From: Gemmatimonadota bacterium
GTDB lineage: Bacteria > Gemmatimonadota > Gemmatimonadetes > Gemmatimonadales > GWC2-71-9
Direction of reading: 5' to 3'
DNA: 64,000 bases
NCBI GenBank assembly: GCA_003222055.1
Contig: QHUT01000068.1
Coordinates: forward strand, 25,853-89,852
Shown here: positions 1,200-61,186 of the stretch, piece after piece
How positions within the stretch are numbered: position 1 is the first letter of the stretch
How the letters are laid out: the number at the start of each line of letters is the position of its first letter
The notes under the pieces: generated by a model
The model's input: only the letters and a program-made list of their open reading frames with translations
The model's database searches: none
Told to the model about the DNA's origin: nothing
Made by a program: the position numbers and the translations under genes

Positions 1200-1243
1200 C
1201 ACTGCCGCTCCTGGCCCCGAGACGCTTGACGAAACAGTCGGAC

Positions 1244-1270
1244 CGACCCCAGGCGCAAGCCCGGGGTAAC
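1244..1270 (+). repeat. REP-like palindromic element, copy 2 (one stem mismatch)
   Basis: ACCCCAGGC-GCAA-GCCCGGGGT, in the same orientation as copy 1. It sits in the divergent intergenic region between the channel gene and the next gene. Confidence 0.75.
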
Positions 1271-1308
1271 GGCTGGCGAGCCGTTCGCACCACCCGTAAA
1301 CTTGCTCG

Positions 1309-2385: not shown

Positions 2386-2390
2386 GCGAG

Positions 2391-5300
2391 GTGCCCTCCG
2401 TGCGCGAGCTGCGCTGGGACGTGCCGAGCGCCGCGCGCCTGGCCGAGCTCGTCGCCGCGCCATTGCCGCTCGGCCTCTCCGCCGGACAGCCACGGCGCAC
2501 GTTTCACCGCGACCTGTACTTCGATACGCCGGCGGGCGACCTGCGGCGGCGCGGCATCACCTGCGCCATGCGCTTCGATGTGGACGATCGCCGCACGCTC
2601 GCCCTCGACATGGGCGCGGTGCGATACGTTGCTCCGGCCGTCGAGATCGAGCCGCTCGAGGCATTCCGCGGCGACGCGGAGCCGGCGCGCCGGCTGCGGG
2701 CGCTGATCGACCCGGGGCGGCTGGTGCTCGTGTGCGAGCTCGAGGTCGAGCGTGAGCTGCGCGGCGCCCGTCTCCCCCTCGTGCCGCTGCCGCAGTTCGA
2801 GATCGCGTACGATACGGTGACGGTCCGCGGCACCGACCCGCCGCCCGTGTTCCGCGAGCTGGCAATTTCCCGGTGCGCCTGGTCGGTGATCCCAGTGGTG
2901 CGCTTTGGAGCAGCGCTCGAGCGGCGTTACGGCCTCACTCGCGCGCTGCTCGACCGGGTCGAACGCGCGCGGACGGTCCGTGTGGTGCTCGGGACGACGG
3001 ACGGCACGGCGCCCGGGGCCAGGCAGATCGCGGTGCTGGCGGTCGCGCACGGGCGCCTGGCGCTGTGGCGGAGCGGCGCCGCGCTCGAGCTGCCGCTCGA
3101 GCCGGGTGGCGGCGAGGAGGCGTGTCGCCGGGCGATGCGCCGCCTGTTCGGGAGCGTCGAAGGCGAGACCCGTCTGATCGGCGTGGTGCGCGCGGCGGAC
3201 CGGCGCCCCGCGGTCGAGGTGTGGCTGGTGCGGCGCCTGCGGCGCAACCTCACCGCGGCGCCACCCGGCGGTCTGCAATGGTTCACCCCCGCGGACGTCG
3301 TCTCACGAGTGGGCTCCCCCGTGTTACGAGATCCGACGACGCTTTCGGCGCTGGCGGTCGCCGCCCGCTCGGAGCTCGTGCCGGAGTGGTCCGCGGCGCC
3401 CCTGGAGCAGGCCGGGCCGACGGGCCCTGTCGCCGGCACGACCGACGAGAGCAGCCGGCTCACACTGAGCGAGTTGCGGGTGCCGGCGCTGCCGCTCCGG
3501 GCCCTCGACGCCGCGCGGCAGTCACCCGACCAGTTCGTCAACGCGCTGCTCTCCTCGCTCGAGTTCAACGTCCGAGTGCTCGAGTTGGCCGAGGATCCCC
3601 GCATCCCGCTGCTCGCCCGGCTGCGCTTCCTCGCGATCTTCAGCACGAACCTGGATCAGTTCTTCATGGTCGACGTGGGCTCGCTGCAGCACCAGGTGGC
3701 GGCCGGCGTCGTCGAGCGCTCGCCCGACGGCCTCACCCCAGCCGAGCAGCTCGACGCCATCGCGATCCGCCTGCATCCGCTCATCGGGCGGCAGTATCGC
3801 TGCTTTCAGGCGCTGGTGCAGGGCCCGCTCGCCGCGCAGGGCATCCGCTTCCGCGACTGGACCGAGCTCGATCCCGGCGAGCGCGCGGGTCTCGCACGCC
3901 GCTTCGCGGACGACGTGGCGTCGCTGCTAACCCCGAAGGCGCTCACCCGCGCCCCCGGCCACGCCTTTCCGCACTTCGCGGATCGCCGGGTGAGCCTGGC
4001 GGTCATGTTGCGGGACGGGCCGGACGGGCCGCCGCACTTCGCCACGGTCGAGCTGCCGCCCTCCCTGCCCCGGTTCCTGGCCGTGGGGGGCAACGGTGGA
4101 GGGGTGGTCGCGCTCGAGACGGTGGTGCGCGCCCATCTCGGGACGCTGTTCCCCGGTCGCGAGATCGTGGAGGCGCACGCCTTCCGCGTGACGCGCAGCG
4201 GGGACATTCAGCTGGACGAGCTCGGAGCGGCGAGCTTCGTGCAGGCGGTCGCCGAGGAGGTGCGGCGGCGGCCATGGGGTCCGGTGGTGCGCCTCGAGGT
4301 CGAGCGCGCCATGCCGCCGGCGCTGCGCGAGCTGCTGCAGCGCGAGCTGCGGTTCGAAGAGAGCGAGCTCGCGAGCGAGCTCGCTCCGTCGGACGTATAC
4401 GCGGCGGACGGGCCGCTGCACCTCGGTGCGCTCGCCGAGCTCGCCGCCGGTCACCCCCGCCCGGAGCTGGATTATCCTCCGCTCGCCGTCCGTGATCCGT
4501 TCCCGGCCGGGCGCACCGTGTTCGACGCGCTCGACTCGGGCGACGTCCTGGTGTACCACCCCCACGACGGTTTTGCCGCCAGCTTCGAGCGCTTCATCGC
4601 CGAGGCGGCGGAGGATCCGGCGGTGGCCGCGATCAAGCTCACGCTGTATCGGCCCGGCGGGCCGTCGCCGGTAGGGGACGCGCTGCGGCGCGCAGCCGCC
4701 CGCGGCAAGGACGTATCCGTGTTCGTCGAGCTCAAGGCGCGGTTCGACGAGGAGCTGAACATCGGCTGGGCACAGAGCCTGGAGGCGGCGGGGATCCACG
4801 TGATCACCGGCGTCGCGACGCTCAAGACCCACGCGAAGATCGCCCTGGTGATACGGCGGACAGACGGCCGCACGCGGCGCTATGCCCACGTGGGGAGCGG
4901 CAATTACAACCCCGACACCGCCAGGCTGTACACCGATCTGGGGCTGTTCACTGCGGACGACCGCATCACGGCGGATCTGCACGCGCTCTTCAACGAGCTC
5001 ACCGGGTCCTCGCGGGCGCCGCGTGCGACGTTCCGGCGGCTGCTCGTCGCACCGAGCAACATGCTCGACCGCTTCCTGGCCCTCATCGCGAGGGAGGCGG
5101 AACACGCGCGCGCCGGCCGCGGCGGGCGCATCCGCGCCAAGCTCAACGGCCTCTCCGATTGCAGTGTGATCGGCGCGCTGTACCGCGCGTCCCAGGCCGG
5201 CGTGGACGTACGTCTCGTGGTGCGGGGGGTGTGCATGCTGCGCCCGGGCGTGCCGGGGCTATCCGAGCGAATCAAAGTGGTGAGCGTGCTGGGTCGCTTC

Positions 5301-45262: not shown

Positions 45263-46801
45263 TCACACCGGATGGGCGTGGCTCGTGCGCAGCACCGTCG
45301 CGATCGTATCGGCCTCGGCGGCATGCTTGTCGGGCCGGTAGCGCACCACGCGGGCGAACCGCAGCGCGACGCCGCCGGGATACTGCGGGCTCGTCTGCAC
45401 GTCGTTGAAGGCGACCTCGACCACGAGCTCGGGACGCACGTACACCGTGTGGTCGTCACGCGACGTTTCGAGCGCGAGGAGGCGGGCCGTCTGCCACGCG
45501 AGCATCTCGTCGGTCATGCCCTTGAAGGTCTTGCCCAACATGACGAAGTCCCCCGTGTCCGGGGCCCGGGCGCCCAGGTGCAGGTTCGAGAGCCGGCCGT
45601 GACGGCGTCCATGTCCCCACTCGGCGGCGAGTACGACGAGGTCGAGCGTGTGCGCCGGCTTTACCTTGAGCCACGCCGCCCCGCGCGCGCCCGCGTCGTA
45701 GCGCGCCTCGAGCGCTTTGGCCATCAGGCCTTCCTGACCGGCCGCGATCGCCTGCTCGAGAAACCGCGTTGCCAGGGGCGGGTCTCGAGTCACGAGGCGC
45801 GGCACCCGGGCCTCGGGCGGGACGAGCTGCTCGAGCGCGGCGAATCGCCTGGTATACGGCTCGTCCAACAGGACGGCGCCGTCGGCGTACAGGACGTCGA
45901 AGAAGAACGCCGCGAGCGGCAGCTCGGCGCGTAGTCGCTCCACGTCGCGCTTCCGTCCGAAGCGGCGCATCGTCACCTGAAACGGGAAGGGCGTGCCGTC
46001 CGGCCGCAGGGCGATCGCCTCGCCGTCGAGGATGGCTTCGCGCAGGGGGAATCGCCGCACGGCTTCCACCACGTCCGGCACCGCCGCGGTCACGTCATTC
46101 AGCTGGCGCGTGAACACTCGCACCTCTGCTCCCGCCCGGTGCACCTGGATGCGGGCGCCGTCGAGCTTGTATTCGAACGCCGCTTCGCCCAACTGCGCGA
46201 GCGCGGCCGCGACGTCGTCGGCCGCCTGCGCGAGCATCGGCTGGAGCGGGCGGAACAGCTCCAGGCGAAACCGCGCCAGCCCGGCGGCGCCGTCCGTGAG
46301 CGCGGCGTGCGCCACCACACCCAGGTCGCCCGCGAGCATGGCGGCGCGCCGCACACCCTCGGGATCGAGTCCCGTCGCACGGGCCACGGCCTCGACCATC
46401 AGTCCTTCCAACGCCCCCTGACGCAGCTCGCCGATCAGCAGGCGGAACAGGAATTCCTGCTCCTCCGGAGTGCCCTGCGCGAACAGCTCACGTAACAGTC
46501 GGTCCTTCGCCGCGGCGGAGCCTTGGCCCGTGGTCCGAGCCACCCGCCCGAGCGCGGCGTCCAGCGTGGCCAGCTCGAGGGTGGGACGGTCCGACGCCCG
46601 CTCGGGCCGCGCCGCCCGGAGCGCGGCGTACCCCACGCCGATCCGTCCCTGGCGCAGCGACCCAGACAGAGCGGCGATCGCCGTCTCGATTTCGTCCGCC
46701 GCCGTCCGTTTCAGCAGGGCGGCCAGCAAGTCGATCTTCGCGCGCCGGCCGCCCGTCGCGGCGACCTGGTGGGACGTGGTGACGAGCTCGTGAAGCTTCA
46801 C
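45263..46801 (-). CDS. ATP-dependent DNA ligase (three-domain, archaeal/eukaryote-like)
   Basis: The adenylation motif is FEYKLDGARIQVH, with further NTase/OB motifs (LDGEAI, EGLMAK, WLKVKP). I prefer GTG 46801 (VKLHELVTTSHQVAATGGRRAKIDLLAALL) over ATG 46897. Confidence 0.9.
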   Translation of the reverse strand: MKLHELVTTSHQVAATGGRRAKIDLLAALLKRTAADEIETAIAALSGSLRQGRIGVGYAALRAARPERASDRPTLELATLDAALGRVARTTGQGSAAAKDRLLRELFAQGTPEEQEFLFRLLIGELRQGALEGLMVEAVARATGLDPEGVRRAAMLAGDLGVVAHAALTDGAAGLARFRLELFRPLQPMLAQAADDVAAALAQLGEAAFEYKLDGARIQVHRAGAEVRVFTRQLNDVTAAVPDVVEAVRRFPLREAILDGEAIALRPDGTPFPFQVTMRRFGRKRDVERLRAELPLAAFFFDVLYADGAVLLDEPYTRRFAALEQLVPPEARVPRLVTRDPPLATRFLEQAIAAGQEGLMAKALEARYDAGARGAAWLKVKPAHTLDLVVLAAEWGHGRRHGRLSNLHLGARAPDTGDFVMLGKTFKGMTDEMLAWQTARLLALETSRDDHTVYVRPELVVEVAFNDVQTSPQYPGGVALRFARVVRYRPDKHAAEADTIATVLRTSHAHPV

Positions 46802-46938
46802 TGCACCATGCCGAATCGCCTGTTCCGGGCGGTCATCTTGTAGATGAGCCAGATCTCGCGCACCGTCTTGTGGTGGCGCGCGAGCCAGGCGCGCCACTCG
46901 CGGCGGTTCCTGGCGTAGAAGGTTTTTCCGACTTTCAT
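46798..46938 (-). pseudogene. 46-codon remnant resembling the N-terminus of YdeI/OmdA-like proteins
   Basis: The translation is MKVGKTFYARNRREWRAWLARHHKTVREIWLIYK, followed by an unrelated tail. Its TGA overlaps the ligase GTG. It falls below the ORF-track size cutoff, and the family assignment is from memory. Confidence 0.4.
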
Positions 46939-48069: not shown

Positions 48070-48483
48070 CAGCTTGCGCACATTCGCCAGGATGGCCTCC
48101 AGCTGACTCTCCACCTGGCGCTTCTCCCGCAGCCGGCCGCGCAGCCACGCGATGACCGACCGGGGGGCCCACACGTCCCGCACCGTCACCGCCGTGGACC
48201 CGGCAGTCTCGTCGAGCCGGAACAGCGTTTTCCAGCCGTTGCGCTCACCGCGCTCCACCATGCCGAACGCCGTGGGGGGCGCGAAGTCGACGACCTCGAA
48301 CTCGGTCACACGGTCCCCGAAGCGCGCCTTGAAGCGCACGCCTTTGCGCAGCGGCACGGGGCTCTCGACGCCGCCGCACCCGGGGAGCCACTGAGCGATG
48401 CGCGCCGGGTCGGTGAGCACGGCAAACACGCGCTCGATCGGGGCGGCGACGGGATGGATGACCGTGTGGCTGACAGGGCGCAT
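48058..48483 (-). CDS. SRPBCC (polyketide cyclase/START-like) family protein
   Basis: 141 aa. VFAVLTDPARIAQWLPG is typical of the family. Confidence 0.7.
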   Translation of the reverse strand: MRPVSHTVIHPVAAPIERVFAVLTDPARIAQWLPGCGGVESPVPLRKGVRFKARFGDRVTEFEVVDFAPPTAFGMVERGERNGWKTLFRLDETAGSTAVTVRDVWAPRSVIAWLRGRLREKRQVESQLEAILANVRKLLAA

Positions 48484-48622
48484 CGGCGCCGGTAGCGTGG
48501 CACGGCGGCGCCGTGCTGTCAACCGGGTGATCCCGGGGCTCCCCACCGTCCGTTCCTCCCGCCCCGCCTGCTTGATACTGGCTGCTGTCCGCGGCACCTT
48601 ACGTCGTCATTCGTGGGGCAGC

Positions 48623-49606
48623 GTGGCACTCGACATAGAGCGGTGTGACAGCGTTGCGCATGGGGAGGAGATCAAGGCGCTCTTCCTCCGCAACGGGTAT
48701 GCGGCCTTTCCGGCGACGTTCGATCGGGCCTATGCCCGAGCGGTCTCGGCCGGCGGGGCCAGTTGGGTGGCTCGGAACAACCGGGGTACGGTCGTGGGCC
48801 ACCAAGGCGTGTTCGCACGCGTTTTCTGGGACGCGCAGCGGGTGCTGCGGGCAGCGCTGTTCGTCGACAACCTGTTTGACCCCACCCATCGGAATTTCTG
48901 GTCGGCGGTCGAGCTGTGTCGACGGACGCTCGCGGACCTGTTCGACGCGGGCGGGTTCGACTTCGCCTACACGGATCCCACGCCCGGGTCGTATGCGGTG
49001 CTGCGGGCCGCCGGGTTCAAACCCATCGGCACGCTGCAGCGATTCGCCCTGCCTCTTCACGGGGTGTACCTCGGGCTGCGGCGGCTCCTGTCGCGCCCGG
49101 AGCCGCTCGCGGTGACGCGAGTCGAGGGCCTGCTGGATCGCTCCGTCGCCGAGGCACTGCGCGCGGTACAGCCCAGGACGCAATTCCGAGGGCAGCGCTC
49201 GGTCGAGCTGTACGCGACCCGCTTCAGCGGGGTCACGATGCCGGGTTGGCACTGGCTGCTGTTGCGTTCCGAACGGGACGCGGGGGCTCCGGTCGCGGGT
49301 CTGGTGCTGGCGCGGTACGTGCCGGGCCAGGCCGCCCTCGACGTGGTCGACGTCATATGGGACCAGGCACGGCTGTCCGCGGCGTCCGTGATGCACGCCG
49401 TCGCGCGTGCGGCGCGCGCCGACGGACTCCAGAAGCTGAGTCTGTTCACGCTGGCCGAGTCCCACCTGGCACGCTGCCTCGAGCGATGCGGCTTCGTCCG
49501 CCGCCCCGACACGCTCCCCCTGGTGCTGCACCTGATGCGCCAAAACGTCGCGCTCCCCCCGGCGCAGGACTGGTTGCTTACGTCCTTCGACGGCAGTGCC
49601 TGGTAG
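48623..49606 (+). CDS. Hypothetical protein, possibly a two-domain GNAT-like acyltransferase
   Basis: The ORF is clean from GTG 48623. The function call is weak. Confidence 0.5.
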   Translation: MALDIERCDSVAHGEEIKALFLRNGYAAFPATFDRAYARAVSAGGASWVARNNRGTVVGHQGVFARVFWDAQRVLRAALFVDNLFDPTHRNFWSAVELCRRTLADLFDAGGFDFAYTDPTPGSYAVLRAAGFKPIGTLQRFALPLHGVYLGLRRLLSRPEPLAVTRVEGLLDRSVAEALRAVQPRTQFRGQRSVELYATRFSGVTMPGWHWLLLRSERDAGAPVAGLVLARYVPGQAALDVVDVIWDQARLSAASVMHAVARAARADGLQKLSLFTLAESHLARCLERCGFVRRPDTLPLVLHLMRQNVALPPAQDWLLTSFDGSAW

Positions 49607-49675: not shown

Positions 49676-50047
49676 TTAGACGCCACTCGAAGAGGGCACC
49701 TCGGTGACGCTGTCATGCCCGTTGCCGTTGCCATTCCCGTTGCCGTTGCCGTTGCCACTGGGGGATACTTTGGAGCGCCCCCCGGTCACGGCCAGCCAGC
49801 GCCGTCGCATCCCGATCTGATCGTCGAGCTGCTGGCGGAGCTTCGCCACGGTCGTGTCCACCAGGTGGATGCGCCAGTCGATGTACTGCTCCGCCTGGTC
49901 GGGGGTCCAATCCGCCGGACCCGTAAACACCAGCTCCTCTTTGGGTTCGACGTCGTGCACCAGCTGCGCTTCGTCACGCTCGCCCACCTCCATCTTGGCG
50001 AGCACATCCGTCACCTTCCGTCCCATCAGGTCCAGCCTGCGTCCCAT
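49676..50047 (-). CDS. Hypothetical small protein with a C-terminal (Gly-Asn)6 repeat
   Basis: 123 aa, divergent from the XRE gene across the AT-rich region. I recognise no motif. Confidence 0.5.
   Translation of the reverse strand: MGRRLDLMGRKVTDVLAKMEVGERDEAQLVHDVEPKEELVFTGPADWTPDQAEQYIDWRIHLVDTTVAKLRQQLDDQIGMRRRWLAVTGGRSKVSPSGNGNGNGNGNGNGHDSVTEVPSSSGV
49719..49757 (-). repeat. Hexanucleotide microsatellite (GTTGCC-like units) encoding GNGNGNGNGNGN
   Basis: The units are visible in the sequence and stay in frame. Confidence 0.85.
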
Positions 50048-50104: not shown

Positions 50105-50183
50105 GTGCTGCGCTATATCATCGATAGATGGTATAGCGGATAGCTGCTATAATATATATAGTTGTTATATCACGCAAGGAGGG
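50105..50183. promoter_or_regulatory. AT-rich divergent promoter/operator region
   Basis: TATAAT lies at 50148-50153. GCTATA/TATAGC half-sites lie at 50112-50117, 50132-50137, 50140-50144 and 50146-50150. AAGGAGGGG lies just upstream of ATG 50190. Confidence 0.6.
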
Positions 50184-50189
50184 GTGAGG

Positions 50190-50447
50190 ATGTCACGGTA
50201 TCGAGGCCAGAAGGTCCGCTATCGTCGCAGGGGGGTGGTGCGCTTGCGGTTGCGGCAGCTATTGGAAACGCGCCCGGTGTCGCCCTACGGGCTGGCCAAG
50301 TTCACCGGCTTGAGCTTGAACACGATCTACCGGCTCACGCGCCCCAGCGGGCGGTTCACACTCATTCGCGCCGACACGATCGAGCGGCTGTGTGGCGCGC
50401 TGCGGGTGACGCCGAACGAGCTGTTCGAGTACGAGAAGCCGTCCTAG
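50190..50447 (+). CDS. XRE (Cro/CI-type) helix-turn-helix regulator
   Basis: The HTH region is SPYGLAKFTGLSLNTIYRLTR and the tail is ERLCGALRVTPNELFEY. An alternative GTG lies at 50184. Confidence 0.8.
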   Translation: MSRYRGQKVRYRRRGVVRLRLRQLLETRPVSPYGLAKFTGLSLNTIYRLTRPSGRFTLIRADTIERLCGALRVTPNELFEYEKPS

Positions 50448-50448
50448 C

Positions 50449-52410
50449 TCAGGTGTGGTGCACCACCCCGTCCGCCACGTTGTCTTCGTGCCGCAGCGTG
50501 ACGACGGCGGTGCGCTTCCGTCCGAGGTCGACCTCCACCACCAGGTGGCTCTTGTCGCGCGCCATCCGCCAGCGGCGGGACGCCTGCGGCGCACCACCGG
50601 CCGCCGCCAGCGCGGCGGTGACCACCGCTTCCGGAGGATCGCTCACCGCCGCGAGCTCTGCGCAGGTGGCACAGCGGTGTGACTCGGCGCTCAGATCCGC
50701 GGTGCACACGCGACGGCCGCAATATCCGCATGCCGCACGATGCAGCTCGCACGTGCCGCGTCCGCAGATGGGACACGCGGCGACCTCGTCGGACGCGAAC
50801 AGCGCCGCTGGCTCCTCGGCGCAGGCAGCCCGGTGCCGGGCGCACACCAGCCGTCTCGACCGATCGGCGCGGCGCAGGTGGGGCGAGCAATGCACCTGTT
50901 CATCCACCGCGCACACCGCCTGATGCGCCGTGCACACCGACTTGCCGCAGGTGGCGCACGGCGCCACCTCGTCCACGCCCACCGGCTCGTTGGTCCCGCC
51001 CTCGCAGTACCTGAGACACGCGGCGCACAAGCGGCGGCTCCCCTTGGGGGCGTCGGCGTGGCTGCGCTGGGCGTGCCGGTTGCACACCTCCCGGCCGCAG
51101 CTGCCGCACGGCGCCAGGCACGCGGAGCACGCCGCGTGCCCGTCCTCGGCGCACGCGCCGGCGTGAGCGGTGCAGTGCTCGAGCCGGCAGGACGGGCACA
51201 CCTGCACGTGCTCGTCGCACGCCGGCTGGCCGTCCACGCGACACTCGAGCGTCCCGTGGTCGGCGCAGAAGTCCTCGCCGCATACCGAGCAGCGGTGCGA
51301 GCAGGCGTCACAGCCGCAGTGGTCGTGGCGGCAGATCACCAGCATGGCCGGCGGGCGGCCGCACTGCGGACACGCCAGCGACCAGCCGGACGCACCACTG
51401 AGCGACCGCTGCGCGGCGAACATCGCGCGGCGCCCCCGCACCGACTCGAGGTGCCATTCGGCGCGCTGCATCAGCACGGCGGCCTCCACCAGCTGCAGCG
51501 GGTGCACGACGGCCTTCACCTGGCTGCGGCGGATCTCTTCGGCGCGGCGACGCTCGGCGAGCGCCGAGACCGTCGCGATCGCCTCGGGGTTGGTTTGCTC
51601 CTTGACCACCGACTCGAAGTATCGGTCCAGCCGGCCGAGCTCGGCCGCGAGCTCCTGCTCCGCCGCTGCGCGGCGGGTGGCGACACGCTCCGCCGCCTTC
51701 TCCCGGAGATGGCTCAAGAGGAGTCGCAGCAGCTCACCGGCCTCCCGCGCCGGGACGGCCGCCGCCCCGGCGCCCGCCGGATCCGCGGGCGGGACCCGGC
51801 CGGCCTCGAGTTCGAGGAACGCTGCGGCCAGATCGGCACCGACCGGGGCGCCGGCCGACAGGTCGTACACGTCGGTCTCGACCACCGCCTCTTCCACGCC
51901 TGCTCCGGCGCGCAACACCACGCGCGCCACGAGCCGCCCCACGGGATGCACGGCCAGCCTGGTCGCACGGCGCTTGATCGTACCGTCGCGCACGGGAAGC
52001 GTCGGCTCGACGGCCTCCGGATCGCTCGACGGCGGAGCCGCGGGCGCGATCAGGCCGAGGGAGAGCCGCGCCGCCCGCGCGCGGATCGCCTCCACCACCT
52101 GTGAGACGAACGGGCTGCCGAGCACGGCGATTTCGGCGTCCGGGTCGCGCTCGAGCGCGTCGAGCGAGAACGCCACGCGCAAGCGGTCGCGGTCCCTGAA
52201 GAACGGGCGCTCGGCCGAGGGGAGCCTGAGCTCCGCGTGATCAGGGCCGAGGGCGGCCTGTTTCACGCCCGCGAGCTCACAGTAGCGCTCGAGCAGGGGC
52301 CGCAGCGCCGAGCCCGCCAGCGGGTCGGCGTCCCTCGGGGCCTGAGGCGCGGCCGCCGGTGGCTTGCGGCGGGGTTTGCGCGCCGGTCTGCGCGCCGCTG
52401 TGCGCTTCAC
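50449..52410 (-). CDS. 653-aa uncharacterised protein: basic N-terminal tail, alpha/beta plus coiled-coil region, tandem Cys/His zinc-knuckle-like array
   Basis: Its GTG at 52410 overlaps the SNF2 TGA (GTGA). The N-terminus is VKRTAARRPARKPRRKPP. Residues 347-583 hold about 38 Cys in repeated CxxC...CxxH units. The upstream 150 codons of ORF 50449..52860 overlap SNF2 and are rejected. Confidence 0.75.
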   Translation of the reverse strand: MKRTAARRPARKPRRKPPAAAPQAPRDADPLAGSALRPLLERYCELAGVKQAALGPDHAELRLPSAERPFFRDRDRLRVAFSLDALERDPDAEIAVLGSPFVSQVVEAIRARAARLSLGLIAPAAPPSSDPEAVEPTLPVRDGTIKRRATRLAVHPVGRLVARVVLRAGAGVEEAVVETDVYDLSAGAPVGADLAAAFLELEAGRVPPADPAGAGAAAVPAREAGELLRLLLSHLREKAAERVATRRAAAEQELAAELGRLDRYFESVVKEQTNPEAIATVSALAERRRAEEIRRSQVKAVVHPLQLVEAAVLMQRAEWHLESVRGRRAMFAAQRSLSGASGWSLACPQCGRPPAMLVICRHDHCGCDACSHRCSVCGEDFCADHGTLECRVDGQPACDEHVQVCPSCRLEHCTAHAGACAEDGHAACSACLAPCGSCGREVCNRHAQRSHADAPKGSRRLCAACLRYCEGGTNEPVGVDEVAPCATCGKSVCTAHQAVCAVDEQVHCSPHLRRADRSRRLVCARHRAACAEEPAALFASDEVAACPICGRGTCELHRAACGYCGRRVCTADLSAESHRCATCAELAAVSDPPEAVVTAALAAAGGAPQASRRWRMARDKSHLVVEVDLGRKRTAVVTLRHEDNVADGVVHHT

Positions 52411-54536
52411 GCGTCGGCCTCGATATCCACGAGCGCGAGGGGCAGGCGCTCGACCTGTGCTACGAGCGTGATCGCGCGGCCGGCGCTGGTCAGGCCGGTG
52501 AGCCGCACCAGGTCTCCGTACTTGGGATGATGGCCGGCCGGCTGGGCGGTCGTGACGCCACCGACCGGCTCGATCGACTCCAGCGCCTCGAGCACGTCCG
52601 TCACGTGCAAGCCGAGCTTGAGGCGCTTCGCGTCCCAGCCGGCTGCCCTGACGACCTGGCTCGTGCCGAACCCGAGGCGCAGGCGCCCGGGGACCGACAG
52701 CGTCCCGAACCGGCGCTCGAGCCGCATGGCGTTGTCGTCCGGCGCGATAAGGGAGTTGAGCGCTTCCTGCGCCTTGCCCGCCGCACTGCTCTTCTCGATG
52801 TCGGCGCCGAGCGTCGCCACCCGGCGTGCAAAGTCCGCGTCGTCTTCGGCGGCGAGCCATTCTTCGGCAAGCCGGCCTTCGAACTGCTGGGCGCCGCCGA
52901 ATTCCCCGAGGATCAGGTCCAGCTCGCCCACGACCAGCTCGAACAGCTTGATCTTCTGGTCCAGCAACTGGAGGATGTACGCCTCGATGGTCCCGGTCGC
53001 CGCCAGGTTCACGATGTGGACCTCGCGCGTCTGCCCGATGCGGTGCAGGCGGCCGATGCGCTGCTCCACCACCATCGGGTTCCAGGGCAGGTCGTAGTTC
53101 ACGAGCACGTTGCAGAACTGCAGATTGCGTCCTTCGCTGCCCGCGCGAGTGGCGATCAGCACACTGCGCGGGTCCTGGTGGAAGGCGCGGATCCGCGTAT
53201 CCCGCTCGGGCGTCGAATGAGCGCCCCAGTAGACGATGGGCGTACGGCCCAGCTGCTTGACGCGCTCTGCGATCAGCTCGATGGTCGGGCGGTGGTCGCT
53301 GAAGACCACCACGCGGTCGGGCGTTTCCTGCAGCAGTTTGGTCAGCACGTCCAGCTTGGCGTGGGTCTTGATGCGGCGCGCCCGCTGGGCCAGCTGGCGG
53401 GCGATCGTGCGGTACTCGGGGCTGATGCGCTCAGCCTCGCCCAGGTGCTCGAGCGACTCGGCGAGCGCGCGCGCGGAGGAGCACAGCCGCTGGCGCAGGT
53501 GGATGACCGCGAGCTGCAGGATTCCCTTCTTGGTGGGCCGCCGGCGCCGCTTGCCGTCTTCCACCTCTTCCTGCTCGGCCGGCTGGATGAAGCCCTCTCG
53601 GTACAGCCGTCGCAGGAACTCGGTGGTGCGCTGATACAGGTCCGCCTCGGCGCGCGTCAGCTTGACCTCGGGGTGGCGCGGCCGGCGCGGCGGCAGGTCC
53701 AGGTCGAGGGCGACGCTCGAGCGCCGCGTGCGGATCATCACCGCGTGCGTCAGGGCGCGCAGGGCTTCGGGGTCGCGCGGCTGGCGGCGGTCGCCCGAGA
53801 CGAGATGCTCGCTCTTGAACTCCTGCCAGGTGCCGAGCTGGCCGGGCCGGAGCAGCGTGATGAGGTTGTACAACTCGCGCAGGTCGTTCTGGAGCGGCGT
53901 CGCCGTGAGCAGCAGGATGAAGTCCCGCTCGATTTTCTCGATGAACTGGTAGGTCGCGCCGCGGTGGCTCTTCACCTTGTGTGCCTCGTCGACGATGACG
54001 AGATCCCAGCGGTGTCGCAGGATCTCTTCCGCGTGCCGGCGCGAGCGCGCGCGGTCGTGCGAGATGATCGCCCTGGTGATGGCAACGCGCTGCCAGTCGT
54101 CGGGCTCGGTCGGGGTCTCGAAGCGCTCGAAGAACTTCTCCTCGAGCTCGCCCTGCCACTGGCCCACGAGCGAGGCGGGCGTCAGGATCAGCACGCGGCG
54201 GGCGAGGCCGCGGATCGCCAGTTCTTTATAGATGATGCTCGCCTCGATCGTCTTGCCGAGGCCGACCTCGTCGGCGAGGATCGCGCGGCCGCCCATGTCG
54301 CGCAGCACGCGCTGGGCCACGTCGATCTGGTGGGGCAGCTCCTTGATCGCGTTGGCGTCGAGCGTGATCAGCCGGTCGAAGCCGGGGACGAGGGCGATAC
54401 GCTCCGCCTCGCGCCGCAGGTCGTACCAGGCACGATCGGCCGGCGGTTCCTTGAGCTTGTCGACGAAGAGCGTCAGGGACCGCTCGTCGACCGCCCAGGA
54501 GTCGTCGCGCAGTGGAGCGGGCTCAGGCAGCGTCAC
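52407..54536 (-). CDS. SNF2/Swi2-family ATPase (helicase-like translocase)
   Basis: It has motif I (DEVGLGKT), motif II (DEAH), LLLTATPLQNDLRELYNLITLL, and DLPWNPMVVEQRIGRLHRIGQ. The start is GTG, preceded by a GAGG-like Shine-Dalgarno sequence. Confidence 0.9.
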   Translation of the reverse strand: MTLPEPAPLRDDSWAVDERSLTLFVDKLKEPPADRAWYDLRREAERIALVPGFDRLITLDANAIKELPHQIDVAQRVLRDMGGRAILADEVGLGKTIEASIIYKELAIRGLARRVLILTPASLVGQWQGELEEKFFERFETPTEPDDWQRVAITRAIISHDRARSRRHAEEILRHRWDLVIVDEAHKVKSHRGATYQFIEKIERDFILLLTATPLQNDLRELYNLITLLRPGQLGTWQEFKSEHLVSGDRRQPRDPEALRALTHAVMIRTRRSSVALDLDLPPRRPRHPEVKLTRAEADLYQRTTEFLRRLYREGFIQPAEQEEVEDGKRRRRPTKKGILQLAVIHLRQRLCSSARALAESLEHLGEAERISPEYRTIARQLAQRARRIKTHAKLDVLTKLLQETPDRVVVFSDHRPTIELIAERVKQLGRTPIVYWGAHSTPERDTRIRAFHQDPRSVLIATRAGSEGRNLQFCNVLVNYDLPWNPMVVEQRIGRLHRIGQTREVHIVNLAATGTIEAYILQLLDQKIKLFELVVGELDLILGEFGGAQQFEGRLAEEWLAAEDDADFARRVATLGADIEKSSAAGKAQEALNSLIAPDDNAMRLERRFGTLSVPGRLRLGFGTSQVVRAAGWDAKRLKLGLHVTDVLEALESIEPVGGVTTAQPAGHHPKYGDLVRLTGLTSAGRAITLVAQVERLPLALVDIEADA

Positions 54537-54589
54537 ACGATGCCTCTGGAGTGGGGGTGGGCAATATAGGAAATCGGTAGATTCCCGGC

Positions 54590-57500
54590 ATGGCCTTCGA
54601 CCCGCTCCCGCAGCAGCGCCTTGCCATTGAAGCGCCGCTCGGCCCCGTCCTCGTGGTCGCGGGACCGGGCGCGGGAAAGACGTTCTGCCTCATCGCGCGT
54701 ATCAACCATCTCATCGCCACCCTGGGCGTGCCGCCCGAGCGCATCTGCGCCGTCACGTTCACGAATCGGGCGGCCGAGGAGATTGCCGTCCGTCTGAAGC
54801 ACACGCTGCGGGATCGTGCCGACGCCATCACGCGGGGCACGATCCACGCGTTGTGCCTCGCCCTGCTGCGGGAGCACGCCGAGGCGGCGGGCCTGCGGAG
54901 GGGGTTCGGCGTTGCCGACGAGCAGTACCAGAAGGTGATCCTGGGCCGGCTGCACGTGCCGCTCGAGCAGCGGGGATCGCTGCTGAACCGGTTCAGCCGG
55001 CATCGCGTGCAAAAGCGGGACTTCGAGCTGTCGGCCGAGGACGCGCGCCTGTTTCGCGAGTACGCCGTCTGGCTGGCGCACCGCAACATGGTGGACTTCG
55101 ACGACCTCGTCACCAAGGCCGAGCAGCTGGTGCGCACGCGGGGCGACATCGCCGACGCGATCGCCGCGCGCTGGGACTATCTCCTGGTCGACGAGTTCCA
55201 GGACGTGAACGCGGTTCAGTACGACCTCCTGAAGCGCCTCGCGGCGCCGCACGGCAACCTGTTTGCGGTCGGCGACGACGAGCAGTCGATCTTCACCTGG
55301 ACGGGGGCGGACCCGTATGTCCTGGTGCGGTTCGGCCGCGATTACGGGATCGAGCGACCCATCGTGCTGGACAAGAACTGCCGCTGCTCACGTCAGATCT
55401 TCGAGACCGCGCGGCGCGTGCTGGCGCAGAACCCCCAGCTGTTCGAGAAGCAGCTGAGCGCCGATCAGGAATCGCCGTACGACGTCGGCGCATTCACCTT
55501 CCGCGACGAAGAGGAAGAAGCCTCCTGGCTGATCGAAGACCTGCAGAGCGACCGCGCGGCGTCCGGCCTGGGATGGGGCGACTACGCAGTTCTCTACCGT
55601 AGGCACAAGCTCGGCGAGTACCTCGAGGGACGACTGCTCCGAGCGGGGATTCCCTGCCGGCTGGCGCGCGGCCGCTCGCTCGTCGAGGACGACGTCATCA
55701 AGTACGTGATCGCCGCGCTGCGGATCGTGCGCAATCCCGACGACGCCGTCGCGCTCGAGTCCTTCGCGCGCTGCGTGCTCTCGGCGCACTTCCTCCAGGA
55801 AGTGCTGGCCTCACCCCCGTTCCCCCTCTCGTCCTCACCCCCTGTCCCCCTCTCCGCTGATGCGGAGAGGGGGGACGCAGCCGACTTCCTTGCCGCCGTA
55901 CGCTCGCTGGCCCGGCGCCGGCCGGCGCAGGATCCCGACACGAAGAAGCTCTGGCGGCTCGTGTTCCAGGTCGAAAACCTCCGCGCCCTGCCTCGGTCGC
56001 ACCGCGCGTTGGCGCCGCTCGTCGATGAGATCCTCTCGCAGAGCGTCGGGCCCTACCGCAACGCGCTCGAGGAGCGGCACGACGAGCTCACCGACCCCGC
56101 CGATAGCCCCGACGCGGTGCGTCTCGCCGAGCGGCTCGCGGCGGCGATGGCGGCGGAGCAGGAGATCGTGATCGAGCCGCAGGGCGGGCTGGAGATTGCC
56201 TTGCGCGGGATGCTGATAGCGGCTGGTCTGCGTCACGTGCCAACCTCGACGACCGCCCGAACCTCCCCAACCCCCATCGCTTCCCCGCTCACCCTGTTCA
56301 AGGCGCTCCAACTGCTGCACTCGAAGGAGCTCGATACCGCGCTCGAGCGCTACGTCACCTTCGACCTGGAAACGACGGACAGCGACGTCGCCACGTGCGG
56401 TGTCGTCGAGCTCGGCGCGGCACGGGTCGTCAAGGGCGAGATCGTGGACCGGTTTCACACGCTGGTCCAGCCGTACCAGCCGATCTCGCCGCGGGCGAGC
56501 GCGATCCATGGCTACACGGATCGCGACGTGCAGAATGCGCGCTCCTTCGCCCAAGCGTGGCCCGAGTTTCGCGCTTTCGTCGGCAAGGACGTGCTCATCG
56601 CTCACAACGGCCAGCATTTCGACATTCCCGTGCTGCGCCGGCTCGCGGCCGGACAAGATGGAGTCGACGACCTCCTGTTCTACGACACGCTGCCGCTCGC
56701 TCGCTCTCTCTCCCGCGACAGCGCCAAGCTCGAGGACCTGGCCCTGCGGTTCGGGATCGACGCCGGGCGGGCCCACCACGCGTTGGACGACGCGGTCACG
56801 CTGGCCCGGGTCTACCGCGAGCTCGAGCGCCTGCGGGAAATTCGGGCGCGCAAGGCGGTGCTGGTCAACCTGCTCGACTACCTCGGATTGGCCTTGGCGC
56901 TGGAACAGGGACCGGGCAGCGGGGAGCGGGATCTGCTGTTCAAGCTCGCAAAGTTCTACACGTTGGGCCGATACAGCGATGCCCTGGCGTACTACGCGAT
57001 GGAGCGCGAGCGCACGGGTGGGGCGGCGCCTGCGGTCGACGAGGTGATCGAGCGGCTGGGCGGGCGCGCGCTCATGACACACCTCCGTGCCGAGCCCGAC
57101 CCGGCGCAGCGATATCCCGCCGCGGTGGCGCGCTTGCGGGCGCTGATGGACGGGCCCTCACCCGGTTCCTCACCCCCTGTCCCCCTCTCCTCGTCAAGGT
57201 CCTCACCCCCTGTCCCCCTCTCCACTACGTGGAGAGGGGGAACGCTCGAAGAAAGTATCGATCGCCTGCTCGAGCGCGTGGCGCTGTCCACGTCGGAGGG
57301 CATCGAGGTCGCGCCCGATCGCGTCAACCTCCTCACGCTGCACTCGACCAAGGGGCTGGAGTTCTCGCGCGTGTACATCGTGGGAGTGGAGGATTACCAG
57401 ATCCCGGGCTATCGCGAGTCGACGGAGAAGCGGCAGGCCGAGATTCAGGAGGCGCGGAGGCTTCTGTATGTGGGTATGACGCGGGCGCGGCAGCGGCTGG

Positions 57501-57610
57501 TGCTGACGCGGGTCGAGCGCCGGTTCGGGATGGAGGCGGGGGGAAGTACGTTCCTCGAGGAAATGGAGTTGGAGGTACAAGACGTGGCAGCGCCCGGAGC
57601 GAAGCCCTAG
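54590..57610 (+). CDS. UvrD/Rep-family helicase with an internal DEDDh (DnaQ-like) 3-prime-5-prime exonuclease domain
   Basis: Helicase motifs are AGPGAGKT, TFTNRAAEE, VDEFQD, GDDEQSIF, LHSTKGLEF and YVGMTRAR. The exonuclease motifs at about 56351-56824 are FDLETT, AHNGQHFDIPVL and HHALDDA. Confidence 0.9.
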   Translation: MAFDPLPQQRLAIEAPLGPVLVVAGPGAGKTFCLIARINHLIATLGVPPERICAVTFTNRAAEEIAVRLKHTLRDRADAITRGTIHALCLALLREHAEAAGLRRGFGVADEQYQKVILGRLHVPLEQRGSLLNRFSRHRVQKRDFELSAEDARLFREYAVWLAHRNMVDFDDLVTKAEQLVRTRGDIADAIAARWDYLLVDEFQDVNAVQYDLLKRLAAPHGNLFAVGDDEQSIFTWTGADPYVLVRFGRDYGIERPIVLDKNCRCSRQIFETARRVLAQNPQLFEKQLSADQESPYDVGAFTFRDEEEEASWLIEDLQSDRAASGLGWGDYAVLYRRHKLGEYLEGRLLRAGIPCRLARGRSLVEDDVIKYVIAALRIVRNPDDAVALESFARCVLSAHFLQEVLASPPFPLSSSPPVPLSADAERGDAADFLAAVRSLARRRPAQDPDTKKLWRLVFQVENLRALPRSHRALAPLVDEILSQSVGPYRNALEERHDELTDPADSPDAVRLAERLAAAMAAEQEIVIEPQGGLEIALRGMLIAAGLRHVPTSTTARTSPTPIASPLTLFKALQLLHSKELDTALERYVTFDLETTDSDVATCGVVELGAARVVKGEIVDRFHTLVQPYQPISPRASAIHGYTDRDVQNARSFAQAWPEFRAFVGKDVLIAHNGQHFDIPVLRRLAAGQDGVDDLLFYDTLPLARSLSRDSAKLEDLALRFGIDAGRAHHALDDAVTLARVYRELERLREIRARKAVLVNLLDYLGLALALEQGPGSGERDLLFKLAKFYTLGRYSDALAYYAMERERTGGAAPAVDEVIERLGGRALMTHLRAEPDPAQRYPAAVARLRALMDGPSPGSSPPVPLSSSRSSPPVPLSTTWRGGTLEESIDRLLERVALSTSEGIEVAPDRVNLLTLHSTKGLEFSRVYIVGVEDYQIPGYRESTEKRQAEIQEARRLLYVGMTRARQRLVLTRVERRFGMEAGGSTFLEEMELEVQDVAAPGAKP
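55809..55876 (+). repeat. Intragenic palindromic repeat element, copy A
   Basis: A degenerate unit (55809-55830) is followed by the perfect 23-mer CCTCACCCCCTGTCCCCCTCTCC (55833-55855). Then come an 8-nt loop and GGAGAGGGGGG. It is translated in frame as SPPFPLSSSPPVPLSADAERGD. Confidence 0.85.
57168..57241 (+). repeat. Intragenic palindromic repeat element, copy B
   Basis: The same 23-mer occurs twice (57168-57190 and 57201-57223). Then come a 7-nt loop and GGAGAGGGGGA. It is translated in frame as SSPPVPLSSSRSSPPVPLSTTWRGG. Confidence 0.85.
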
Positions 57611-58116
57611 TCCTTCTTCCAGGCGCCGAGCAGGCGTCGCAACAGAACGAGCTGGCCCAGGTGGTACGAGTTGTGGTCGGCGAGCACCAGCGCTTCACGC
57701 AGCACGGTTTGTCCGGTGCCGTGGGGAATGCGGGCAAACAGGTCGGTCTTCGGGTCGGCCACGAGGCGCTGCATGGCGCGCAGGTCGCGCTCCACCTGGG
57801 CCACGCTCGCGTCCCAGGCGGCGGCCTCTGGCGGGGCGTCGTGCTCGGGCCAGTAGCCCGCCGGCCACTCCGGAGAAACGTGCTCCTCGCTCTTCGTGAA
57901 CTCGACGATGTCCCACTGCGAGATGCGGACGTGCTCGAGCAGGCGCCACGGCGTAAAGGGCTGCCCGGCGGGTCTCGTGCCCCGGAGCGCGCCCGGCCAA
58001 TCGGCGAGCGCGTCCCGGAAGGTGACGTGGGCGTGACCGCCGCGCAGCAGCTCGAGCACGTGGTCGCGGACGGCGCCACGTGGATCGGTGCGCCGCGGCT
58101 TGCGTTTGACGGGCAT
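57607..58116 (-). CDS. DinB-fold (DinB_2-like) protein
   Basis: It has His-containing helices (HVLELLRGGHAHV and ADHNSYHLGQLVLLRR). GGAGG lies upstream of ATG 58116. Confidence 0.75.
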   Translation of the reverse strand: MPVKRKPRRTDPRGAVRDHVLELLRGGHAHVTFRDALADWPGALRGTRPAGQPFTPWRLLEHVRISQWDIVEFTKSEEHVSPEWPAGYWPEHDAPPEAAAWDASVAQVERDLRAMQRLVADPKTDLFARIPHGTGQTVLREALVLADHNSYHLGQLVLLRRLLGAWKKD

Positions 58117-58165
58117 GCAAGGCCTCCTGGGCTTCTGGCGCAGCCTTGAAGTTACCACCCACCGT

Positions 58166-58203: not shown

Positions 58204-58722
58204 TCAGGCCCTTCCCAGCATCAGCAGCACGCCCTCGTGCTCGAGCAGCCAGCGCTTTCGATCGAGGCCGCCGCCGAAGCCCGTCAACTCCCCGCGCGCG
58301 CCGACCACCCGGTGGCAGGGAACGATGATAGGGATGGGATTCTTGCCGTTGGCGGCGCCCACGGCGCGCGTCGCGTGCGGGTCGCCGAGCCGCAGCGCCA
58401 GCTGGCCGTAGCTGGTGGTGGCGCCATAGGGAATGGTGCGCAGCAGGTCCCAGACGCGTCGCTCGAATGCCGAGCCGGCGGCGTCGAGCGGCAGGTCGAA
58501 CGTCGTGCGAGTCCGATCGAAATACTCGGTCAATTGCCGGCGGACGCGCGCCAGCAACGCGCCGGCGGGACCGCGGCCATCGTCTTCCACCCACCCCGGC
58601 TGCTCCTCGGGTGCAGCACGGTTGCGGTGGACCGGAAAGAACACTCCCTTTAGGGCGGTGTCCGAGGCCGCGAGGACGAGTTCGCCAACGGGACTGGGGA
58701 AGCGCGTGAACGTGATGGGCAT
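58204..58722 (-). CDS. ogt: Methylated-DNA-protein-cysteine methyltransferase
   Basis: The active site is IPIIVPCHRVVG, with the preceding YGQLA and NGKNP motifs. Confidence 0.9.
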   Translation of the reverse strand: MPITFTRFPSPVGELVLAASDTALKGVFFPVHRNRAAPEEQPGWVEDDGRGPAGALLARVRRQLTEYFDRTRTTFDLPLDAAGSAFERRVWDLLRTIPYGATTSYGQLALRLGDPHATRAVGAANGKNPIPIIVPCHRVVGARGELTGFGGGLDRKRWLLEHEGVLLMLGRA

Positions 58723-58829: not shown

Positions 58830-59549
58830 TCAGGGACCGACGGAGCTCGTCGCGGAGCCGACGATGATCTCGCCGGTCGTCGTCGGGATACCGCCGATCA
58901 CCTGGCCGGTGAGCGGATCGACGGTCCCACCCGTCATGCTCTGCAGGTACACGTGGATCATGTTCACGGTCAGGCCGCTGCTCGTCACACCATCACCGGT
59001 GGGGATCTGCTCGTTCAGCACGACATAGCCGACCCCGGGAAGGCTCTGCTGGGTGTTGGGGGCGACGGCCGCGTCCCCGGACGTCACCGGCACGCCGGCC
59101 ACCGTGAGGTTCGTGAACGTCGAGCCGTCGGCGTTGCTGAACGCACCGCTTTGGCCGGCGCTGCTCATGACGTTGGCGACCACTTCATCCGCCGTGATCA
59201 GTCCGTTCAGGATGTTCACACTCGCCGCGCTCGACGTGCTCTGCGCGCCCGCCTCTGCGGACCCGATTTCACCCGACGTGACGCTGTTGAGGAAATCGGA
59301 CGACAGGGCGCCCGCCACGTTCAGCGCACTTCCTTCGGCGTCCGCCTCGGCGCCGTCGGTGCCCGAAACAGCCGGGAGCACCGCCAGTGGCGACTGACTA
59401 CTGGAACCGAGCGGCGTGTTGACGTACGTGCTGTACGCCTGGCCACCCACCGACTGGGCGCTGCCCGCCGCCGCGAGCCCAGCCACGAGCCCGACGACGA
59501 GCCCGAGGACCGCGAGGCGGTTCACCCAATGCATGGTCTTGCCGTTCAT
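58830..59549 (-). CDS. Secreted Ser/Gly/Thr-rich protein, possibly of the choice-of-anchor P type
   Basis: It has a signal peptide (LAVLGLVVGLVAGLAAAGSAQS) and low-complexity beta-rich sequence. The family name is recalled from memory and not verified. Confidence 0.6.
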   Translation of the reverse strand: MNGKTMHWVNRLAVLGLVVGLVAGLAAAGSAQSVGGQAYSTYVNTPLGSSSQSPLAVLPAVSGTDGAEADAEGSALNVAGALSSDFLNSVTSGEIGSAEAGAQSTSSAASVNILNGLITADEVVANVMSSAGQSGAFSNADGSTFTNLTVAGVPVTSGDAAVAPNTQQSLPGVGYVVLNEQIPTGDGVTSSGLTVNMIHVYLQSMTGGTVDPLTGQVIGGIPTTTGEIIVGSATSSVGP

Positions 59550-60622: not shown

Positions 60623-61186
60623 GTGGAACCGACCGCAGTGTCGCCGTTCGCCGCCTGGGAAAGCTTCTACGTGATCGTCGGCTCGTCGGGCGCGGCGTTA
60701 ACCGGTCTGCAATTCGTGGTGGTCGTGCTGGGCGCCGAGGCACGCTCGATCGGCCCGGAGGTAGGCGCCTTCGGCACGCCCACGGTCGTCCACTTCTGCG
60801 CCGCGCTGCTCATGTCGGCGATCCTGAGCGTGCCGTGGCGCGCGGTCTCAAACGCCGGGCTCGCCCTCGGCACCGTGGGTGTAGCGGGAATCGTGTACAT
60901 GGCGATCGTCATCCGGCGGGCGCGGAGGCAGATGAAGTACGTGCCCGTGCTGGAAGACTGGCTGTGGCACTGCGCCTTTCCGCTCATCGCGTATGTGACG
61001 CTGCTCGGCGCGGCGCTCGTGCTGTGGCGCGATCCCCCGCGCTCGCTCCTGGTCATTGGCGCGACGGCGCTGTCCCTCCTGTTCATCGGCATTCACAACG
61101 CGTGGGATGCCGTCACCTACATCGCCACGCAGCAGCCGCAGCACGAGGAGGGTGCGCGGGACCGCAAGAAGGGTCAGTCAGGTTGA
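60623..61186 (+). CDS. Integral membrane protein (about 5 TM)
   Basis: The start is GTG, preceded by AAAGGAGG, and hydrophobic helices run throughout. Confidence 0.6.
   Translation: MEPTAVSPFAAWESFYVIVGSSGAALTGLQFVVVVLGAEARSIGPEVGAFGTPTVVHFCAALLMSAILSVPWRAVSNAGLALGTVGVAGIVYMAIVIRRARRQMKYVPVLEDWLWHCAFPLIAYVTLLGAALVLWRDPPRSLLVIGATALSLLFIGIHNAWDAVTYIATQQPQHEEGARDRKKGQSG

Follow-up and report, generated by a model that had tools for sequence, protein, structure and literature searches.

We analyzed a 64,000-nucleotide stretch of DNA from a Gemmatimonadota bacterium (GenBank assembly GCA_003222055.1, contig QHUT01000068.1, positions 25,853 to 89,852 of the forward strand; hereafter "the window"), and in particular two adjacent genes encoding an SNF2-family ATPase and a cysteine-rich protein, here called the partner, together with the helicase-exonuclease gene that faces them. 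The SNF2 gene (52407..54536, minus strand, 709 amino acids) was identified from the list of open reading frames (ORFs) and Pfam matches, the partner gene (50449..52410, minus strand, 653 amino acids) from the ORF list, and the UvrD-DEDDh exonuclease gene (54590..57610, plus strand, 1006 amino acids) from the ORF list together with Pfam and NCBIfam matches. The TGA stop of the SNF2 gene overlaps the GTG start of the partner gene (GCGTGAAG at 52407..52410, minus strand), a GTGA overlap in the sequence that points to translational coupling, and a GAGG is located 8 nt upstream of the partner GTG. A spacer of 53 bp (54537..54589) separates the SNF2 start from the UvrD ATG. An earlier reading of the window, made from its letters alone (the sequence-only reading), had placed the three ORFs, the overlap and the divergent spacer at these same coordinates, and its account of the flanking genes, namely an XRE regulator with an AT-rich stretch, a DinB-fold gene, an Ogt gene and an ATP-dependent ligase gene, was equally accurate.

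Given that G+C content at third codon positions was 0.87–0.92 in all three ORFs, as in coding DNA, and that homologues exist for each of them, we conclude that all three are true genes rather than ORFs arising by chance in GC-rich DNA. A frameshift near the 3′ end of the partner gene was considered and rejected, in-frame third-position G+C staying high until the last ∼20 codons. The window has a G+C content of 70%, the names carried by homologues assign it to Gemmatimonadales, the composition of the operon matches that of the genome, and the remainder of the window is ordinary chromosome, with genes such as those for AcrB, PQQ dehydrogenases, polyphosphate kinase, and a histidine kinase. Promoter and terminator scans, including a scan for a sigma-70-like match in the 53-bp spacer, found none, although such a scan is uninformative for this phylum.

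The Conserved Unit Is an SNF2/Partner Operon

Loci were collected from one genome per GTDB species, which gave 63 loci with a relative of the 653-residue protein, nearly all of them in metagenome-assembled genomes of Gemmatimonadales. For the SNF2 gene, synteny was counted over loci with an intact partner 5′ end and at least 300 nt of upstream sequence (n = 47). An SNF2 ortholog lay directly upstream of the partner gene in all 47, on the same strand and abutting or overlapping it, with distances clustered around zero. The SNF2 proteins of Gemmatimonadales loci were 76–97% identical in most cases and 57% identical in the most divergent (L055); the gene occurred once per locus, in varied housekeeping contexts. 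Adjacency of the UvrD-exonuclease was counted over the 30 loci that had a complete SNF2 gene and no less than 1.5 kb of sequence upstream of it; the exonuclease gene was divergently adjacent to SNF2 in only two of them and present anywhere within ∼5.9 kb upstream in five. Because SNF2 was kept in 47/47 loci but UvrD in 2/30, the conserved unit is the translationally coupled two-gene operon of SNF2 and partner.

The pairing extended to distant members of the partner family, for which genomic context could be read in nine loci, two of these having too little upstream DNA to judge. In five of the remaining seven (L064, L065, L066, L067, and L072) an SNF2 ortholog, 39–54% identical, was again directly upstream, in line with the coupled pair proposed in the sequence-only reading, while the partner itself was ∼24% identical to the window protein in these paired loci. 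At L064 the two genes overlap by 8 nt. The other two distant loci, L070 (partner at 1077–3206) and L071 (2657–3868), had a partner gene without SNF2 upstream, and at L071 that region holds opposite-strand ORFs; the pairing is therefore very common, not universal.

What was not conserved is the link to the third gene. The sequence-only reading had combined SNF2, the zinc protein and the UvrD-exonuclease into one three-gene module for DNA damage or defense, expressed from a shared divergent promoter and acting as a joint machine of two motors plus a nuclease. The 53-bp divergent spacing in the window and the same arrangement in three other loci (L047, L048, and L002) speak for such a module, as do the repair genes close by (DinB-fold, Ogt, and ligase) and the ultraviolet (UV) sensitivity of a knockout in Bacillus thuringiensis (PMC10054049) of yqhH, the RapA-like SNF2 gene of Bacillus discussed below. 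However, L047, L048, and L002 are the closest relatives of the window, and the divergent SNF2/UvrD arrangement was confined to them. Neighbors at other loci were unrelated metabolic and regulatory genes (for a subtilase, a GGDEF response regulator, citrate and ABC transporters, BNR/sortilin proteins, and a metallo-beta-lactamase-fold protein), and L064 had no UvrD-type gene at all. With the helicase gene adjacent in so few loci (2/30, or 5/30 within ∼5.9 kb), we consider the three-gene module very improbable. The 53-bp spacer is a lineage-specific juxtaposition of SNF2 and UvrD and not a conserved shared control region. No repair gene was a conserved neighbor of the SNF2/partner pair in the synteny of related loci; the repair genes for the UvrD-exonuclease, the DinB-fold protein, Ogt, and the ligase are independent of it and lie nearby by chance in this lineage. 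Nothing in the analysis supported either a joint machine or an anti-phage role for the three genes, and the idea of a conserved "two-translocase plus nuclease" module can be set aside as a false lead.

RapA-Related Parts of the Two Proteins

Escherichia coli RapA (HepA) is an RNA-polymerase-associated Swi2/Snf2 ATPase (PDB entries 6BOG, 4S20, 7M8E, and 8T0L), and its RapA_C domain is Pfam PF12137. RapA frees stuck RNA polymerase in E. coli, where its N-terminal domain (residues 1–107) autoinhibits the ATPase, forms a large interface with the beta′ subunit's zinc-binding domain, and moves the clamp.

The SNF2 protein carried the Pfam domains SNF2-rel_dom (9e-34) and Helicase_C (5e-20), which confirmed the earlier domain call, and its Walker A (GLGKT), DEAH, and motif VI (QRIGRLHRIGQ) sequences were intact. 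With a profile of 14 orthologs, hhalign aligned SNF2 residues 59–534 to E. coli RapA 147–634 (E 5.4e-40, 32% identity over 413 columns); BLASTP gave 36–37% identity to RapA in two blocks, and the closest PDB chains were SsoRad54 (1z63) and RapA. These alignments establish that the ATPase core of the SNF2 protein is homologous to that of RapA. The RapA N-terminal domain is absent, since helicase motif I comes after just 66 residues, and the alignments accordingly begin at RapA 147–155. No RapA_C domain was found on the SNF2 protein by Pfam. Its C-terminal extension (residues 535–709, 175 amino acids) had no match in RapA, relative to which it is extra, and is much shorter in distant lineages. 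Against the NCBIfam RapA equivalog model NF003426 the protein scored 198.3 bits, under the cut-off of 576. Defense SNF2 proteins (DISARM DrmD, BREX BrxH, Dpd DpdE, and Zorya ZorD) shared with it a generic similarity in the SNF2 core of about the same strength as that of RapA, and it is the partner gene that links the SNF2 protein to RapA specifically.

The partner had no match in Pfam, NCBIfam, or PADLOC. More than 400 homologues annotated as "hypothetical protein" were found, mostly from Gemmatimonadales, and an exhaustive HMMER search of 1.84 billion representatives yielded 345 clusters of the family at E ≤ 1e-3, many of them fragments. Full-length members at 19–25% identity had a common architecture, consisting of an N-terminal region, a Cys/His array, and a small C-terminal domain. 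The N-terminal region of the family spans ∼300 residues; it includes a GS motif and a beta-rich part, together with a helical hairpin that bears RLxxYY. In the window protein it is preceded by a basic Lys/Arg/Pro-rich tail (residues 1–27 of the translation; 52330..52410, minus strand), which was variable in Gemmatimonadales homologues, absent from distant ones, and disordered in the models.

By its own terms the sequence-only reading fails if the 653-residue protein has a confident match to a characterized family, and the N-terminal half of that protein shows that it is not an orphan. Residues ∼30–340 (51391..52323, minus strand) form a RapA-C-terminal-like module, delimited by an AlphaFold2 model searched with Foldseek, by hhalign and HMMER, and by a Pfam YqhG match of the family consensus. 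An AlphaFold model of residues 1–340 built from a more diverse alignment had a mean predicted local distance difference test (pLDDT) score of 79.9, and the module was modeled as an alpha/beta domain plus a beta-sheet region, with a long helical hairpin that contains the RLxxYY motif. When this model was searched against the PDB with Foldseek, four matches were significant and all four were RapA (8so8, 8t0l_F, 6bog_A, and 8spg; E 5e-7 to 4e-6, probability 1.0, ∼310 aligned columns), the fifth match having an E of 0.25. At the profile level, hhalign with an 11-sequence alignment placed partner profile columns 8–232 on RapA 712–924 (196 columns, P 7.5e-4). In HMMER, the N-terminal profile found RapA as its sole match among all PDB sequences, in collinear segments 710–749 and 845–951, and the family consensus had a weak Pfam RapA_C match that maps to RapA ∼842–934. 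An earlier full-length AlphaFold2 model from a shallow alignment had pLDDT below 50 in the N-terminal half and no significant Foldseek match (best, PHD fingers at E ∼0.3). Ribosomal L32, which appeared when the full-length profile was searched against PDB sequences (E 0.4), was dismissed as a trivial zinc-ribbon resemblance.

At the level of the family consensus, the same region also matched Pfam YqhG (PF11079), for which the gathering score is 25 bits. The hidden Markov model consensus of 16 N-terminal regions scored 26.9 bits (E 2.8e-6) over profile positions 111–248 of 258, and two distant members, P0202 and P0260, gave collinear matches below the cut-off (13.9 and 16.6 bits, E 0.026 and 0.004); YqhG was the only family matched by more than one member. 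The window protein itself had no PF11079 match. Because the C-terminus of E. coli RapA alone did not match Pfam YqhG either, the connection between YqhG and RapA_C rests on the partner family as a bridge. Of two profile searches of a large protein database for YqhG proteins, one returned only Gemmatimonadales relatives and the other only P0248, and we found no paper linking YqhG to the C-terminal region of RapA.

Several observations weigh against a relationship between partner and RapA. TM-scores of the Foldseek matches were low (0.23–0.27, with a root-mean-square deviation of ∼13 Å), so that what carries the match is the local 3Di alignment, together with its exclusivity, and not a global superposition; we attribute the low scores to sub-domains that are oriented differently relative to each other. 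The probability given by hhalign was only 25%, a 16-sequence N-terminal alignment gave a weaker result (43 columns, E 0.047), the HMMER match to RapA had an E of 0.24, a weak signal at the sequence level, and the window protein itself lacks a Pfam match. These points leave in place a homology, at the level of fold and profile, that links the N-terminal half both to RapA's C-terminal part and to Pfam YqhG. Given the exclusivity of the Foldseek result, its local score, the agreement of three sequence mappings with it, and the link of the gene to one for a RapA-like motor, partner residues ∼30–340 are very probably homologous to RapA ∼712–950.

Following this module, residues 347–583 (237 amino acids by residue position; 50662..51372, minus strand) form a zinc-knuckle array in which C-x2-C-x4-C-x2-H-x3 units are chained; its 38 Cys and 16 His would suffice for as many as ∼13 zinc sites. 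These Cys and His residues were invariant among 20 homologues. Across the family the array ranged from 109 to 398 residues, or roughly 7 to 27 sites. It was modeled as repeated beta-hairpins (pLDDT 70–88) and had no significant fold or sequence match in Foldseek or PDB profile searches. Many Gemmatimonadales homologues (P0018, P0023, P0024, and others) carry an extra zinc-knuckle block of 61 residues after residue 545 (alignment columns ∼629–690), which the window partner and its closest relatives lack; the array thus gains or loses modules within one order. The protein ends in a helix and a four-stranded beta domain (residues 594–653; 50452..50631, minus strand; model pLDDT 73–84), which was kept across the whole family, including the members at 19–25% identity, with Trp614 invariant. 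This domain matched neither the RapA N-terminal domain nor anything else, and our literature search found no paper describing the Cys-rich family.

Compared with E. coli RapA, then, the pair has a homologous ATPase core, the first ∼340 residues of the partner resemble RapA's C-terminal part in both fold and profile, and the order of the two genes keeps the order of the RapA domains. Unlike RapA, the enzyme is split over two polypeptides: RapA_C is not in cis on the SNF2 protein, and in Foldseek, hhalign, and HMMER alike it was the partner that supplied the C-terminal module in trans. The RapA N-terminal domain is found in neither protein, and the 237-residue zinc array and the beta domain of the partner have no counterpart in RapA. 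The system fails strict RapA membership (score below the cut-off, no N-terminal domain, no C-terminal module in cis), yet SNF2 and partner would work like RapA and are evidently from the same stock.

A second likeness is to Bacillus. In B. subtilis, yqhH (hepA), which encodes a RapA-like SNF2 protein, adjoins yqhG (PMC6123443; PMC7385302), and the two Bacillus neighbors lie upstream of sinIR (PMC6123443). As in the window, a short RapA-like SNF2 gene thus stands beside a gene whose small product is uncharacterized, and the partner shares with YqhG the trait of being encoded next to such a gene (47/47 loci). Unlike the partner, the YqhG profile, at 258 positions, is too short to include a zinc array.

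The defense affinities of the SNF2 core raise the possibility of a two-gene anti-phage system in which the zinc-knuckle protein would sense phage components and SNF2 would act as effector or translocase. Partial matches of the core to models of DrmD, BrxH, HmaA, DpdE, and ZorD fit this, and two-gene operons with an uncharacterized partner are common among defense systems. The matches were nevertheless confined to the generic ATPase core and far below cut-offs (237 vs. 950 bits for DrmD_b, 227 vs. 500 for DpdE, and 88 vs. 1500 for ZorD). No nuclease, methyltransferase, or other effector belongs to the pair, the partner is without a PADLOC match, and its N-terminal half is RapA-like. Unlike known defense SNF2 proteins, the SNF2 protein had no full-length match to such models and no companion genes, and its conservation is of the housekeeping kind: apparently vertical (76–97% identity in most loci), in DNA of native composition and in varied housekeeping contexts. 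Methyltransferase, PLD, ZorAB, and Dpd genes were found neither in the window nor in related loci. For Gabija, GajB models matched only the generic UvrD core of the 1006-residue protein, which has no OLD/TOPRIM neighbor. The sequence-only reading was therefore right that the set is not DISARM, Zorya, or Gabija, companion genes being missing and scores far below cut-offs, and we regard a defense role for the two-gene operon as highly unlikely.

A Possible Two-Chain Remodeler of RNA Polymerase

RapA binds near the RNA exit channel. Its residue D744, assigned to the Spacer domain, contacts the beta′ zinc-binding domain (PMC8501970). When post-termination complexes are dislodged, this domain of RapA acts as a wedge in the opened cleft (bioRxiv 10.1101/2024.09.28.614012), and the role of RapA is RNA polymerase recycling (PMC8666675). 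The RapA part retained in the partner, which follows the ATPase core in the same chain in E. coli, includes residues in contact with the beta′ zinc-binding domain.

On balance, we read SNF2 and partner as a split RapA/HepA-type remodeler, probably associated with RNA polymerase. The first gene supplies the ATPase core and the second a RapA-C-terminal-like module, followed by a rod of ∼13 zinc knuckles and then a small beta domain. The two proteins would assemble into a 1:1 complex and thereby reconstitute an enzyme of the RapA kind; this complex would dock on RNA polymerase and, through ATP-driven DNA translocation, dislodge or recycle stalled or post-termination polymerase. Since the RapA N-terminal domain is missing, another element must dock or regulate the enzyme, and candidates are the zinc array, the terminal beta domain, the basic N-terminal tail, and the SNF2 C-terminal extension. 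The array and the C-terminal domain may replace or supplement the missing domain, possibly as an extra arm for docking or for binding nucleic acid (nascent RNA or DNA). The variable length of the array suggests a spacer or a multivalent binder; as speculation, we favor for it the role of an extended docking or nucleic-acid-binding arm. HelD, of Firmicutes and Actinobacteria, and Mfd are driven by ATP and remove or recycle RNA polymerase that has stalled (PMC8666675; PMC7749165); they are candidate functional analogues with unrelated folds and superfamilies, homology to the present pair not having been detected here.

Counting against a RapA-type remodeler are the lack of the RapA N-terminal domain from the SNF2 protein, which means that the mechanism of E. 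coli RapA is not transferable as such; the near-equal scores of the SNF2 core against DrmD, DpdE, BrxH, and RapA; the partner genes at L070 and L071 that stand without SNF2; and the fact that RNA polymerase binding and the SNF2-partner complex both enter by inference, as does, purely, the role of the zinc array. An alternative is a DNA remodeler independent of RNA polymerase. Such an enzyme would, for example, process forks or lesions or displace nucleoid proteins, the RapA-like module serving only as a structural scaffold and the zinc array as a DNA-binding element. In favor of it are the missing N-terminal domain, the plausible binding of nucleic acid by zinc-knuckle arrays and a basic tail, and the UV phenotype of the yqhH knockout (PMC10054049). 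What makes this alternative unlikely in our view is that the partner retains a RapA part of which one residue touches RNA polymerase in E. coli (PMC8501970), and that the pair has no repair gene as a conserved neighbor.

RapA is the main model of a Swi2/Snf2 motor on bacterial RNA polymerase and is so far known only in one-chain form. What the locus suggests is a natural version in two chains, with the C-terminal part as a separate subunit, a system in which the roles of RapA domains could be separated genetically. It also offers a first functional lead for the uncharacterized Pfam family YqhG and for the Cys-rich family, which is without a model (345 clusters). For a bacterial cytoplasmic protein such a zinc array is unusual, with up to ∼13 sites here and ∼27 in relatives, and it had no structural precedent in PDB searches; both the subunit that bears it and the split architecture are new. 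More tentatively, and as a possibility we hold to be doubtful, the split form of an SNF2 core plus a YqhG-like subunit could be a widespread, unrecognized architecture of bacterial RNA polymerase remodelers, whose second subunit here has gained a rod of 7–27 knuckles and a beta domain as a new arm for binding RNA polymerase or nucleic acid, possibly sensitive to zinc or redox state, in place of the RapA N-terminal domain.

The UvrD-Exonuclease, a Palindromic Mini-Repeat, and Flanking Genes

In the 1006-residue protein, Pfam placed UvrD-helicase at residues 7–252, RNase_T (DEDDh) at 589–742, and the best stretch of UvrD_C at 887–974, which upheld the earlier description of a UvrD helicase with an internal exonuclease. 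The DEDDh and helicase motifs (FDLETT, HNGQHFD, HHALDD, GPGAGKT, and DEFQD) were intact by eye. The protein is a UvrD/PcrA-type superfamily 1 helicase with an insert of ∼480 residues (about 400–880) between its UvrD_C matches, and this insert holds the intact exonuclease. Where present (L002, L012, L023, L032, L047, and L048), the protein was 67–89% identical, and it was not linked to the SNF2 pair.

A palindromic mini-repeat has been inserted in-frame twice in the UvrD-exonuclease gene, at 55811–55872 and 57170–57239 (plus strand). It consists of two tandem TCACCCCCTGTCCCCCTCTCC copies followed by a hairpin, CCCCTCTCC-N7/8-GGAGAGGGG, and encodes "SSPPVPLS" peptides; none would be expected by chance. 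The second site was missing from the orthologs in L048, L047, and L023, and of these three only L048 had the first. The hairpin occurred 13 times in 709 kb of related loci, and copies lie inside the partner gene at L002, L007, L034, L036, and L056, which explains the "SPLSRRERG"-type inserts of some partner homologues. The mini-repeat is similar to mobile palindromes of the REP/RPE type, which coding DNA tolerates.

On the side of the partner gene, the flank begins with an XRE helix-turn-helix gene (HTH_26, 87 amino acids, 50184–50447), upstream of which is an AT-rich stretch with GCTATA/TATAGC repeats (window 50110–50175). The XRE gene and a divergent gene of 123 amino acids without a family match (49676–50047, minus strand) travel together in the close relatives L001, L002, L014, L047, and L048, and may form a small regulator pair or a toxin-antitoxin-like pair; at L014 the two lie upstream of SNF2 instead of downstream of the partner. 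The ATP-dependent ligase gene (45263–46897) is 3.55 kb away. Beyond the UvrD-exonuclease gene are the DinB_2 gene (57607–58158) and the Ogt gene (58204–58722). Three further conserved, coding-like genes without a Pfam match encode proteins of 402 (48398–49606, plus strand), 239 (58830–59549, minus strand), and 187 amino acids (60623–61186, plus strand), the last of which recurs near the operon in L005, L006, and L012.

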